DNA of 64,000 nucleotides from Escherichia coli (GTDB taxonomy: Bacteria; Pseudomonadota; Gammaproteobacteria; Enterobacterales; Enterobacteriaceae), in assembly GCF_003790525.1 (NCBI RefSeq), contig NZ_CP033635.1; one strand, written 5' to 3'. The notes beneath the pieces were generated by a model. That model saw only the letters and a list, made by a program, of their open reading frames with translations, did no database searches and was not told where the DNA came from. Positions 4,062-7,987 of this stretch are shown here, piece after piece. Each line of letters starts with the position of its first letter. The stretch's first letter is position 1. The position numbers and the translations under genes were made by a program.

Positions 4062-5216
4062 TTACTTCAGACCGGCAGCATCGCGCAGCAGCTGCGCTTT
4101 GTCGGTTTTTTCCCACGGGAAATGTTCGCGACCAAAGTGACCGTATGCTGCGGTTTCTTTGTAGATCGGGTGCAGCAGATCCAGCATCTGAATCAGACCG
4201 TATGGACGCAGGTCAAAGAACTCACGTACCAGCAGAGTCAGTTGTTCAGAAGGCACTTTCTCGGTACCGAAAGTTTCCACCATGATAGAGGTCGGTTCAG
4301 CCACGCCGATTGCGTAGGAAACCTGAATTTCACAACGATCGGCCAGGCCAGCAGCAACGATGTTTTTCGCGACATAACGTGCTGCGTACGCTGCGGAACG
4401 GTCCACTTTTGATGGATCTTTACCAGAGAATGCACCACCACCGTGACGTGCCATGCCGCCGTAGGTATCAACGATAATTTTACGACCAGTCAGACCGCAG
4501 TCACCCATCGGGCCACCGATAACAAAACGACCGGTCGGGTTGATGAAGAATTTGGTGGCAGAAGTCAGCCATTCAGCCGGCAGAATCGGCTTGATGATCT
4601 CTTCCATTACCGCTTCTTGCAGCGATTTCTGGTCGATTTCTTCAGAGTGCTGAGTGGAAAGCACGACAGCATCGATACCAACGATTTTGCCGTCGTCATA
4701 CTGGAAAGTCACCTGGCTTTTCGCGTCCGGGCGCAGCCACGGCAGAGTGCCGTTTTTACGCACTTCAGCCTGACGCTGTACCAGACGGTGTGCATAGGTG
4801 ATAGGCGCTGGCATCAGCACGTCGGTTTCATTGGTTGCGTAGCCAAACATCAGACCCTGGTCACCCGCGCCCTGTTCCAGCGGATCGGCACGGTCAACGC
4901 CCTGGTTGATGTCAGGAGACTGTTTACCGATGGCGCTCAGAACCGCACAGGAGTTAGCGTCAAAGCCCATGTCGGAATGCACATAGCCAATTTCGCGAAC
5001 GGTGTTACGGGTGATCTCTTCGATGTCTACCCAGGCGCTGGTGGTGATTTCGCCGCCAACTAAAACCATGCCGGTTTTTACGTAGGTTTCGCAAGCAACG
5101 CGTGCTTTCGGATCCTGTTCGAGGATCGCGTCTAAAACGGCATCAGAGATTTGGTCAGCAATTTTGTCAGGATGCCCTTCAGAGACGGACTCGGACGTAA
5201 AAAGGTGTTTTGCCAT
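4062..5216 (-). CDS. metK: S-adenosylmethionine synthetase
   Basis: ORF 4062..5228; [32 protein letters not shown] matches MetK; start at internal Met. Confidence 0.95.
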
Positions 5217-5256
5217 ATTTAATATCACCTAAAGAGAATTTGGTTAGCTCAAACTG

Positions 5257-5523
5257 TTGTGTGGATTTTCTGTGGTAGCGGATCCTACCACGACTCTGCA
5301 GGTTAAAAACACTGGCAGTCTGAGTGTTAATCGGTATGGATGGATTAACATCTGGATGGCTATTTTAGGTCAGTTCTTCACCCAATTTCCACTTTTTTTT
5401 GAATCGTGTCTCATTCTGTTAAAAACGTGGCTGGAAATTTTTCCTGACAATGCTGGCATTCTGCGTATTTATCTTTTGCAATTTTCTGCCATTGTGGGGT
5501 ATAAAACGCGGCGCGCGGCTTAA
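5257..5523 (+). CDS. small hypothetical ORF in metK-speA intergenic region (position of K-12 yqgD; identity unverified)
   Basis: 88-aa ORF only; no recognisable motifs. Confidence 0.2.
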
Positions 5524-5735
5524 ATAAAAAGCACACGACGTTTCTTTCGTGTTGCCACTTCCAGCCGGGTTGAAAACAGAGTTTTGGCTTGTGGGTTCGT
5601 CTTAACAGGCGGCCGTGGAGGTGATACGAAATAATGAACCGTTGTCTGCTGCTTAACCTGTCTCACCGTTCTGGTGAAGATTCGTTCCCCGCACTCTGCA
5701 TCTCTGCTTTGCATACCTGCCGATGTTATACCCAT
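5520..5735 (-). CDS. small hypothetical ORF (position and 71-aa length consistent with K-12 yqgC; unverified)
   Basis: 71-aa ORF only. Confidence 0.25.
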
Positions 5736-5870
5736 CTCGGCGCTTCTCAGGATTCAAGAGCTGGTTACAGCTACTGAGGACTGAACAAGGGCGCTCTTGT
5801 AAAAACAAGAGTTTTCTCGTGGTTTCGCCGAACTGTCACACTTACGTTCGGTTATGTGCTTAATAATGTT

Positions 5871-6002
5871 ATGAAAAAGAAACCGGTTGCGCAGTTGGAG
5901 CGTCAGCATTCACTGCTGGAAAATCCATGTGCTTATGGGTTGTTATCGCAGTTCCAGGCTGCGATAGTCGTTAACTGTTTTACACTTAATAAAATAATTT
6001 GA
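5871..6002 (+). CDS. yqgB: small protein YqgB (43 aa) in speA leader
   Basis: Hand translation from ATG 5871: [43 protein letters not shown], stop TGA 6000..6002; ends 8 nt before speA ATG. Confidence 0.7.
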
Positions 6003-6010
6003 GGTTCGCT

Positions 6011-7987
6011 ATGTCTGACGACATGTCTATGGGTTTGCCTTCGTCAGCGGGCGAACACGGTGTACTACGCTCCATGCAGGAGGTTGCAATGAGCTCCCAG
6101 GAAGCCAGCAAGATGCTGCGTACTTACAATATTGCCTGGTGGGGCAATAACTACTATGACGTTAACGAGCTGGGCCACATTAGCGTGTGCCCGGACCCGG
6201 ACGTCCCGGAAGCTCGCGTCGATCTCGCGCAGTTAGTGAAAACTCGCGAAGCACAGGGTCAGCGTCTGCCTGCACTGTTCTGTTTCCCACAGATCCTGCA
6301 GCACCGTTTGCGTTCCATTAACGCCGCGTTCAAACGTGCGCGGGAATCCTACGGCTATAACGGCGATTACTTCCTTGTTTATCCGATCAAAGTTAACCAG
6401 CACCGTCGCGTGATTGAGTCCCTGATTCATTCGGGCGAACCGCTGGGCCTGGAAGCCGGTTCCAAAGCGGAGTTGATGGCGGTGTTGGCACATGCTGGCA
6501 TGACCCGTAGCGTCATCGTCTGCAACGGTTATAAGGACCGCGAATATATCCGCCTGGCATTAATTGGCGAGAAGATGGGCCACAAGGTCTATCTGGTCAT
6601 TGAGAAGATGTCAGAAATTGCCATTGTGCTGGATGAAGCAGAACGTCTGAATGTCGTTCCTCGTCTGGGCGTGCGTGCACGTCTGGCTTCGCAGGGCTCG
6701 GGTAAATGGCAGTCCTCCGGCGGGGAAAAATCGAAGTTCGGCCTGGCGGCGACTCAGGTACTGCAACTGGTTGAAACGCTGCGTGAAGCCGGGCGTCTCG
6801 ACAGCCTGCAACTGCTGCACTTCCACCTCGGTTCGCAGATGGCGAATATTCGCGATATCGCGACAGGCGTTCGTGAATCCGCGCGTTTCTATGTGGAACT
6901 GCACAAGCTGGGCGTCAATATTCAGTGCTTCGACGTCGGCGGCGGTCTGGGCGTGGACTATGAAGGCACCCGTTCGCAGTCCGACTGTTCGGTGAACTAC
7001 GGCCTCAATGAATACGCCAACAACATCATCTGGGCGATTGGTGATGCGTGTGAAGAAAATGGTCTGCCACATCCGACAGTAATCACCGAGTCGGGTCGTG
7101 CGGTGACTGCGCATCACACCGTGCTGGTGTCAAATATCATCGGCGTGGAACGTAACGAATACACGGTGCCGACTGCGCCTGCAGAAGACGCACCGCGCGC
7201 ATTGCAAAGCATGTGGGAAACCTGGCAGGAGATGCACGAACCGGGAACTCGCCGTTCTCTGCGTGAATGGTTACACGACAGCCAGATGGATCTGCACGAT
7301 ATTCATATCGGCTACTCTTCCGGCACCTTTAGCCTGCAAGAACGCGCATGGGCTGAGCAGCTTTATTTGAGCATGTGCCATGAAGTGCAAAAGCAGCTGG
7401 ATCCGCAAAACCGTGCTCATCGTCCGATTATCGACGAGCTGCAGGAACGTATGGCGGACAAAATGTACGTCAACTTCTCGCTGTTCCAGTCGATGCCGGA
7501 TGCGTGGGGGATCGACCAGTTGTTCCCGGTTCTGCCGCTGGAAGGGTTGGATCAAGTGCCGGAACGCCGCGCTGTGCTGCTGGATATTACCTGTGACTCT
7601 GACGGTGCTATTGATCACTATATTGATGGTGATGGTATTGCCACGACAATGCCAATGCCGGAGTACGATCCAGAGAATCCGCCGATGCTCGGTTTCTTCA
7701 TGGTCGGCGCATATCAGGAGATCCTCGGCAACATGCACAACCTGTTCGGTGATACCGAAGCGGTTGACGTGTTCGTCTTCCCTGACGGCAGCGTAGAAGT
7801 AGAACTGTCTGACGAAGGCGATACCGTGGCGGATATGCTGCAATATGTACAGCTCGATCCGAAAACGTTGTTAACCCAGTTCCGTGATCAAGTGAAGAAA
7901 ACCGATCTTGATGCTGAACTGCAACAACAGTTCCTTGAAGAGTTCGAGGCAGGTTTGTACGGTTATACCTATCTTGAAGATGAATAA
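6011..7987 (+). CDS. speA: biosynthetic arginine decarboxylase
   Basis: ORF 5999..7987; [45 protein letters not shown] matches SpeA; ATG at 6011. Confidence 0.95.

Follow-up and report, generated by a model that had tools for sequence, protein, structure and literature searches.

What does the short open reading frame (ORF) yqgB do immediately upstream of speA? In the 64,000-nucleotide stretch of Escherichia coli DNA analysed here (contig NZ_CP033635.1 of assembly GCF_003790525.1, hereafter the window), yqgB lies in the leader of speA and stops shortly before the first speA start codon, an arrangement that a first-pass annotation of the sequence described as typical of leader-peptide-type regulation. 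As a gene, yqgB is textbook annotation, and it has already been proposed as an upstream ORF (uORF) for speA; the ORF observation alone adds nothing. The locus raises the question of whether yqgB acts through its peptide or through the passage of ribosomes along the leader. A cis-regulatory role for the yqgB ORF in speA expression appears well supported by sequence comparison, because its frame and the position of its stop codon are conserved and its peptide is not. More specifically, yqgB is probably a translated uORF in the structured, conserved yqgG-yqgB-speAB leader, the function of which would be translation up to the speA start and not the peptide that it encodes. The elements concerned are as follows.

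speA 5' leader: 5513-6010, plus strand; begins at GCGCGGCTTAAATAAAAAGC, the fusion start of Adams et al. (2021), placed at 5513 by matching primer JW10222, given in the supplement of that study (PMC7815308), to the sequence
yqgB: 5871-6002, plus strand; ATG at 5871, 43 sense codons and TGA at 6000-6002; the RefSeq CDS yqgB
yqgB/speA junction, TGAGGTTCGCTATG: 6000-6013, plus strand; TGA at 6000-6002, GAGG at 6001-6004, a 6-nt spacer and ATG at 6011-6013
speA: plus strand; ATG at 6011, ORF end at 7987

The yqgB frame and its stop codon

The geometry of the junction is largely as first described: an ORF of 43 codons starts at ATG 5871 and its TGA (6000-6002) lies 8 nt before the speA ATG, the intervening spacer being GGTTCGCT (6003-6010). 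The span had been given as 5871-6011, of which the start holds and the end does not; position 6011 is already the first base of the speA ATG, and yqgB ends at 6002. The speA Shine-Dalgarno (SD) sequence GAGG (6001-6004) overlaps the yqgB stop codon as TGAGG, and the TTG-extended speA frame that had been said to overlap yqgB exists as a mechanical ORF from TTG 5999 that shares 4 nt with it. An in-frame GTG at 5856 would extend yqgB to 48 codons. Inspection of the sequence upstream of the yqgB ATG reveals no SD, and the start region is A/U-rich and predicted to be unstructured. The position within the speA leader agrees with the cloned speA 5' untranslated region (UTR) of Adams et al. (2021; PMC7815308), which in window coordinates is a leader of 498 nt that includes both yqgG and yqgB.

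The gene name assigned from the sequence also proved apt, as it agrees with the RefSeq CDS annotation and with full-length membership of PF11036 (Pfam; 113.3 bits against a cut-off of 24, E = 4e-33) and a match to NF033844 (NCBIfam, 'acid stress response protein YqgB'; 90.1 bits against a cut-off of 35, E = 6e-26). The context is that of the YqgB family, directly upstream of speA and downstream of metK/yqgG, and yqgB of E. coli K-12 (b2939) is the same gene, identical in sequence and in position between yqgG and speA. Of 5426 complete E. coli genomes, 5425 contain the 701-nt region around yqgB, and 5413 do so with at least 99% identity. A protein search with the 43-residue peptide, which is too short for the word index, returned near-identical Escherichia/Shigella clusters only.

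The length of yqgB is by itself unremarkable, since its frame would be open in this sequence alone with a probability of about 0.07 (mononucleotide shuffles); it is the comparative data that mark the frame as non-random. The speA loci of 80 Enterobacteriaceae species were compared, 79 of which have upstream DNA when the annotated E. coli record (L001) is counted; distinct leaders numbered 74 for the openness of the frame and 58 in the leader alignment, A1. In all 79 loci, where the gene context is likewise that of the family, a homologous ORF begins at a conserved ATG-AAn-AAG-AAA-CCG-GTC motif and ends at a TGA that lies at either -8 (56 loci) or +8 (23 loci) relative to the speA ATG. ORFs with the first stop, the TGA of TGAGG, have 38, 43, 45 or 60 codons, and those with the second, a TGA within ATGTCTGAC (6016-6018 in the window), have 47 to 91, giving an overall range of 38 to 91 codons. 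Insertions and deletions of 1 to 128 nt have never closed the frame. The segment from the ATG to TGAGG falls into 12 length classes, all of which are 0 or 2 modulo 3 and never 1, a length that would fuse the ORF to speA. The stop switches between its two positions among close relatives, as in two Silvania species (L044 and L047) and within Citrobacter. Nearly all of the 79 loci share the sequence TGAGGTTCGCTATGTCTGAC, which is invariant in A1; three loci (L046, L053 and L055) differ by one or two bases each, and a fourth (L060) carries 2 extra nt immediately 5' of the TGA. A stop conserved near the downstream start, as expected of a coupled uORF, is therefore found in the window and at every one of the 79 loci, with the +8 position used in L082, L086, L088, L091 and L093.

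GC-rich inserts of 51 to 128 nt occur between the AIVVNCF block and TGAGG in Kosakonia and its relatives (L017, L038, L046, L050, L053 and L071) and in L029, L055, L056 and L072; they lengthen the uORF to 60-91 codons and introduce no stop. Beyond these loci, a search with SpeA fragments returned mostly truncated SpeA calls and was the source of the distant loci L082-L089, one of which (L084) was too noisy and was left uninterpreted, while two others (L085 and L089) have neither the N-terminal SpeA extension nor a yqgB-like leader. A metagenome scan gave 4 matches, 2 of them relevant.

The yqgB frame is open in all 74 distinct leaders, and the other two frames carry stops in 74 and 70 of the 74. 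Shuffles of alignment columns predict 7.0 stops in the yqgB frame, where none is observed, and none of 2000 shuffles was free of stops, figures that overstate independence, the sequences being related by descent, and that to this extent weigh less in favour of a translated uORF than they seem to. The repeated, independent insertion and deletion events do not hinge on shared ancestry.

These data bear most directly on the proposal that yqgB is not meaningfully translated, the leader being a structured RNA (a protein-, small RNA- or ligand-binding element) whose open frame is a by-product of conserved sequence. Strong nucleotide conservation and covariation would be expected of such an element, and the lack of both an SD before the ATG and an in vivo Ribo-RET peak would be understandable; a scan of 5000-6400 against Rfam at E <= 1 returned no family, and an untranslated element of this kind would thus be an undescribed one. 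The avoidance of stops, however, extends to the variable yqgB codons, inserts of up to 128 nt stay open, and every length class ends at a TGA flanking the speA ATG, none of which a by-product would explain. The yqgB start codon was moreover detected in vitro by INRI-seq (bioRxiv 10.1101/2022.04.11.487859), and yqgB is listed among experimentally validated small ORFs (PMC7815308). An untranslated leader is therefore regarded as highly improbable, the least probable of the explanations weighed here.

Peptide substitution and RNA pairing

Conservation of the peptide across enterobacteria had been proposed in the first-pass annotation as a check, and its outcome is negative. The pooled Nei-Gojobori ratio of nonsynonymous to synonymous divergence (pN/pS) for yqgB is 0.84 when it is read in its own frame and 0.90 and 0.71 when it is read in the two alternative frames, whereas the same method gives 0.09 in frame and 3.0 out of frame for speA. 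Entropies at codon positions 1, 2 and 3 are 0.49, 0.51 and 0.54 in yqgB, with no excess of variation at third positions, compared to 0.08, 0.04 and 0.82 in speA of the same genomes. Purifying selection on amino acids, as expected of a protein family, is thus not apparent. Synonymous divergence (pS) in yqgB is 0.23, half that of speA (0.47). The apparent peptide motifs KKPVAQ, YGLLS and AIVVNCFTL are invariant at their third positions as well; GGG-TTG-TTA-TCG, for example, is identical in 56 distinct sequences, and among comparable codons of speA just 4% have an invariant third base. YqgB varies most at its C-terminus, which exists in two reading-frame versions, ending in ...NKII or ...EVRYV. 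At the distant locus L086 the conserved block CTGCGATAGT is read as N-C-D-S and not as A-A-I-V, and the ORF still reaches the +8 TGA. In Dickeya (L082 and L093), L088 and L091 the peptides are unrelated to YqgB; their ORFs, whose frame is that of the GTG in the conserved GTGTTTTACA, likewise end at the +8 TGA. As far as the literature searched shows, the lack of constraint on this peptide has not been published before, and it bears on claims that the YqgB protein is a drug target.

The databases nevertheless treat K-12 YqgB as a protein family ('acid stress response protein', 'virulence promoting factor'), in contrast to the substitution pattern, which resembles that of an RNA leader constrained only in its frame. 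If YqgB were a trans-acting small protein of this kind, its proximity to speA would reflect operon packing, with co-expression but no regulatory meaning. The annotation and the existence of Pfam and NCBIfam families speak for such a protein, as does the observation that the codons for Ala7, Val33, Val34 and Leu39 vary only synonymously. Hobbs and colleagues reportedly found in 2010 that deletion of yqgB causes sensitivity to acute acid stress. A recent study of Salmonella (PMC13159126, 2026) describes yqgB deletion mutants that are sensitive to acid and colistin and reports the binding of ranitidine to YqgB. In the same mutants, speA and speB mRNA, arginine decarboxylase and spermidine are lowered and the phenotype is relieved by arginine, putrescine or spermidine; since speA and speB expression is reduced, putrescine and spermidine rescue, and complementation is not described, the phenotypes could be explained by an effect in cis. 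The pN/pS of yqgB is no different from that of out-of-frame controls, third positions do not vary in the conserved blocks, which form predicted RNA helices, one block is read in another frame, entire peptides are unrelated in some lineages, and two C-termini occur among close relatives, none of which is expected of a conserved protein. In a screen for arrest peptides, overexpression of YqgB elicited heat-shock proteins, an aggregation-type response (PMC11890864). The substitution pattern thus contradicts a trans-acting protein, which is considered unlikely, at odds of roughly one in five.

If the peptide is free to vary, the conservation of the nucleotides would be better sought in the RNA, which was modelled with RNAalifold on the 58 leaders of A1, together with pair counting across cells. 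Five helices and an extension were obtained, and an internal start with its own SD lies downstream of them.

H1: 5785-5820, plus strand; CTCTTG/CAAGAG core, terminator-like and followed by TTTTCT, between yqgG and yqgB
H2: 5828-5851, plus strand; CCGA/TCGG core, immediately 5' of the A/U-rich, unstructured region in which yqgB starts
H3: 5881-5894 paired with 5929-5941, inner hairpin at 5903-5919, plus strand; inside yqgB
H4: 5944-5949 paired with 5961-5966, plus strand; inside yqgB
H5 (predicted): 6004-6056, plus strand; 6004-6021 (GTTCGCTATGTCTGACGA) paired with 6041-6056 (TCGTCAGCGGGCGAAC), the latter in speA codons 11-16; covers the speA AUG
Long-range extension of H5: 5967-6068, plus strand; 5967-5971 and 5982-5986 (yqgB codons 33-39) paired with 6059-6068 (speA codons 17-20)
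Internal SD and Met27 start: 6079-6091, plus strand; AGGAGG at 6079-6084 and ATG at 6089, an alternative start for a short SpeA isoform

The predicted pairs are formed in 98.5% of cells, against 34-50% when partners are slid, and 46 cells are compensatory, compared to 15 +/- 3 in shuffles, none of 500 shuffles reaching as high a count. Compensatory changes occur in H1 (UA/CG in 15 sequences), H2 (AU/GC in 10 sequences and CG/UA in 2) and H3 (AU/GC in 13 sequences at columns 137/174, tying the Q8/R8 codon to codon 21), and those of H1 and H2 span genera. The helices H3 and H4 coincide with the so-called conserved peptide blocks KKPVAQ, YGLLS and AIVV, and the yqgB RNA has a folding energy of -38.5 kcal/mol (z = -3.08). 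The conserved blocks of yqgB, then, behave as RNA helices, some with compensatory changes. H5 is an invariant predicted hairpin of 16 bp, paired in 98.9% of cells. The supplement of PMC7815308 gives a dominant 3' end 57 nt into speA (K-12 position 3085854, Rho score 3.1, flagged 'uORF'), and this Term-seq end corresponds to 6068, the last base of the extended H5.

A terminator-like match lies at 5793-5812 within H1, upstream of yqgB; no Term-seq 3' end at H1 was seen in the accessible part of the same supplement. The U-tract of H1 is predicted to pair with an upstream AAGGG. A pairing of GGUUGUUAUCG with CGAUAGUAGUC, noticed by eye, competes with the RNAalifold model (outer H3, H4 and the long-range pairing LR1) and was not adopted; both use invariant bases, so that covariation does not separate them, and alternative folds, perhaps a switch, are possible.

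Sequence constraint continues into speA. The whole leader of ~500 nt together with the start of the gene (5513-6110) is conserved in Enterobacteriaceae and includes long stretches in which at least 98% of sequences agree, and the 26-codon N-terminal extension of SpeA (within 6011-6110) is conserved at synonymous sites, pS being 0.19 for codons 1-26 against 0.50 for codons 27-300. The coding sequence of this extension apparently doubles as regulatory RNA, to judge from its synonymous sites. At its end, the AGGAG of the internal SD is invariant, with the last G present in 57 of the 58 sequences of A1, and the Met27 start was detected by both Ribo-RET and INRI-seq (bioRxiv 10.1101/2022.04.11.487859).

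Sensing leader peptides and yqgG

A third explanation is that yqgB encodes a sensing leader peptide, one on which ribosomes would stall in response to arginine, agmatine or polyamines, in the manner of TnaC, SpeFL or MdtU, or at trpL-like regulatory codons, thereby controlling Rho-dependent or intrinsic termination before speA. The location is suggestive, in the 5' UTR of a polyamine-pathway gene for which a lacZ fusion and northern blots demonstrated Rho-dependent termination; the same work describes a yqgG-yqgB-speAB transcript, counts yqgB-speA among candidate uORF-regulated pairs and lists yqgB beside the spermidine-responsive mdtU (PMC7815308). Rare codons (ATA, TTA, GGG and TCG) are also invariant in yqgB, an observation for which RNA pairing accounts. 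The peptide, however, lacks what such a mechanism would require. Arrest peptides have a conserved C-terminus, and that of YqgB is its most variable part and occurs in two frames; attenuators have a cluster of regulatory codons, and yqgB has one Arg codon in E. coli and no conserved run in 79 sequences; and a terminator or antiterminator between ORF and gene is absent, there being no room for one in the 8 nt that separate the yqgB stop from speA. The only C-rich, G-poor stretch resembling a Rho utilisation (rut) site lies upstream, in yqgG, and the arrest-peptide screen placed YqgB in the heat-shock group and not in the group with an arrest-like cold-shock response (PMC11890864). A sensing role for the YqgB peptide is accordingly thought improbable, more so than a trans-acting protein. 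What survives of the original suggestion of leader-peptide-type regulation is the geometry and a cis-regulatory role; codon-sensing attenuation and a metabolite-sensing arrest peptide find no counterpart in an unconstrained peptide that carries no run of regulatory codons.

The polyamine-related leaders already characterized make the same point by comparison. The uORF mdtU, like yqgB, lies in the Rho-terminated 5' UTR of a polyamine-related operon, mdtJI, and yqgB-speA has been named a possible analogue (PMC7815308), but the spermidine-dependent control of Rho termination by mdtU is said to need a conserved C-terminal peptide, which YqgB does not have. The speFL/orf34 leader of speF in Salmonella (PMC6386406) likewise precedes a decarboxylase of polyamine biosynthesis and shares Rho-dependent premature termination and alternative mRNA structures; it responds to ornithine or arginine and serves an inducible ornithine decarboxylase, and SpeFL acts by way of a specific arrest sequence, whereas yqgB is free of such peptide constraint; no kinship in sequence between the two was seen, none having been sought. 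In the conservation of its C-terminus it is yqgG, not yqgB, that stands closer to MdtU. The two ORFs at that position are given below.

yqgG: 5634-5777, plus strand; 47-codon uORF with a strong conserved SD (GGAGG) and a conserved C-terminus, matching PF23505
yqgC: 5520-5735, minus strand; 71-codon ORF antisense to yqgG, not annotated in the RefSeq record inspected

For the C-terminus of yqgG, whose variation is synonymous, pN/pS is 0.36 when read in frame, the out-of-frame values being 0.82 and 4.4, and its QDSRAG-stop ending recurs upstream of speA in Dickeya (L082), L083 and L091. The yqgG protein has been detected with an SPA tag, and the same study found neither ribosome density nor a tagged protein for yqgC (Weaver et al., bioRxiv 10.1101/511675). 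The sole stretch of the leader in which C exceeds G, at ~5640-5760 (GC skew -0.24 to -0.32), falls within yqgG and is a candidate rut site for the loading of Rho. Since yqgG combines a C-terminus constrained at the peptide level with this C-rich, G-poor stretch, it looks, as judged from sequence features, to be the better fit to a leader peptide of the sensing or arrest type, with control over Rho.

Further upstream lie two genes that complete the gene order.

metK: minus strand; ORF as listed 4062-5228, the RefSeq start lying 12 nt further in
yqgD: listed on the plus strand; between metK and yqgG in gene order

A TATAAA hexamer resembling a -10 element occurs at 5500-5505, upstream of the leader start. 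The promoter-like TTAACT-16-AATAAT at 5971-5998 within yqgB was not adopted as a conserved speA promoter because no stretch of the leader is less conserved than the one that holds its -10, and a sigma-54 site described in one paper is ~5 kb distant and irrelevant to the speA leader.

Proposed coupling of yqgB to the first speA start

The best reading of the locus, then, is that yqgB is better described as a coupling uORF than as a classical sensing leader peptide. Ribosomes would initiate at the unstructured, A/U-rich yqgB start and, in elongating, would open the helices within yqgB and then, presumably by melting, the long hairpin in which speA codons 11-20 are the partners of the yqgB 3' end and of the speA SD and AUG (6004-6021). 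Termination would follow close to the AUG, either 8 nt ahead of it, at the UGA overlapping the speA SD, or, in other species, at the UGA that lies 8 nt inside speA; the first speA AUG would thereby be freed and ribosomes passed on to it by termination-reinitiation, that is, by translational coupling. Translating ribosomes may also shield the distal leader from Rho. The short SpeA isoform that starts at Met27 would depend less on yqgB, since Met27 has its own strong and nearly invariant SD. Coupling would account at once for the conservation of frame and stop position, for the freedom of the peptide to vary and for the lower speAB expression that follows deletion.

Such an arrangement has precedents, trpE-trpD and trpB-trpA being well-known translationally coupled pairs. 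Like other pairs and uORFs that work through termination-reinitiation, yqgB has a stop within 8 nt of the downstream AUG, an SD overlapping that stop, a start predicted to be paired and a dispensable peptide. Its difference from the trpE-trpD and trpB-trpA type is that their upstream cistron encodes a co-functional enzyme subunit, whereas yqgB would supply a short, non-conserved peptide from within a regulatory leader of ~500 nt, with a coupling that is so far deduced. The geometry, the conservation of frame and stop position, the lack of peptide constraint and the RNA covariation were established in the present analysis; it is the literature that reports that the genes are co-transcribed, that Rho terminates in the leader, that a 3' end lies at 6068, that the yqgB start is used in vitro and that deletion of yqgB in Salmonella lowers speA and speB expression.

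Several observations weigh against coupling. The step from translation of yqgB to translation of speA is one of reasoning, and no yqgB start was detected by Ribo-RET in vivo (bioRxiv 10.1101/2022.04.11.487859). The authors of PMC13159126, who report the binding of ranitidine, treat YqgB as a trans-acting protein and drug target. H5, the hairpin to be opened, rests on conservation and shows no compensatory change, as its arms are nearly invariant, and its energy of -21.7 kcal/mol in a single-sequence fold (z = -0.99) is ordinary for its composition. In the lineage of L083 and L087 the ORF is cut short by a TAG that follows 23 codons and lies 55 nt ahead of speA. The more distant loci come from truncated SpeA calls, and their assemblies may be of low quality and prone to error. 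One Klebsiella pneumoniae record (P0061, strain IS43) fuses YqgB in frame to SpeA.

The P0061 fusion, which arises from a 1-nt difference in a run of A, is a singleton and reflects either an error of sequencing or a natural but rare event; it is the sole case met of the otherwise absent class with a length of 1 modulo 3.

A broader and more tentative proposal, given somewhat less than an even chance, is that the YqgB 'family' as a whole is a frame-only uORF in a conserved, structured and hitherto undescribed speAB RNA leader (~400 nt, with no Rfam family), that the mutant phenotypes and drug-target status of YqgB are effects in cis, and that the true sensor of the leader is yqgG. The leader would then operate as a relay of two uORFs, in which a sensor, yqgG, controls Rho and a coupler, yqgB, governs translation of the long SpeA isoform. 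The acid-stress, virulence and colistin phenotypes of yqgB mutants would, on this proposal, be cis effects on speAB expression, and the phenotypes and drug-target claims attached to a YqgB protein may be polar effects on polyamine synthesis. As speA provides the first step of the arginine route to putrescine and spermidine, the comparative result offers a concrete and testable mechanism for its expression, namely that translation of yqgB is coupled, in a leader under the control of Rho, to initiation at the first speA AUG.

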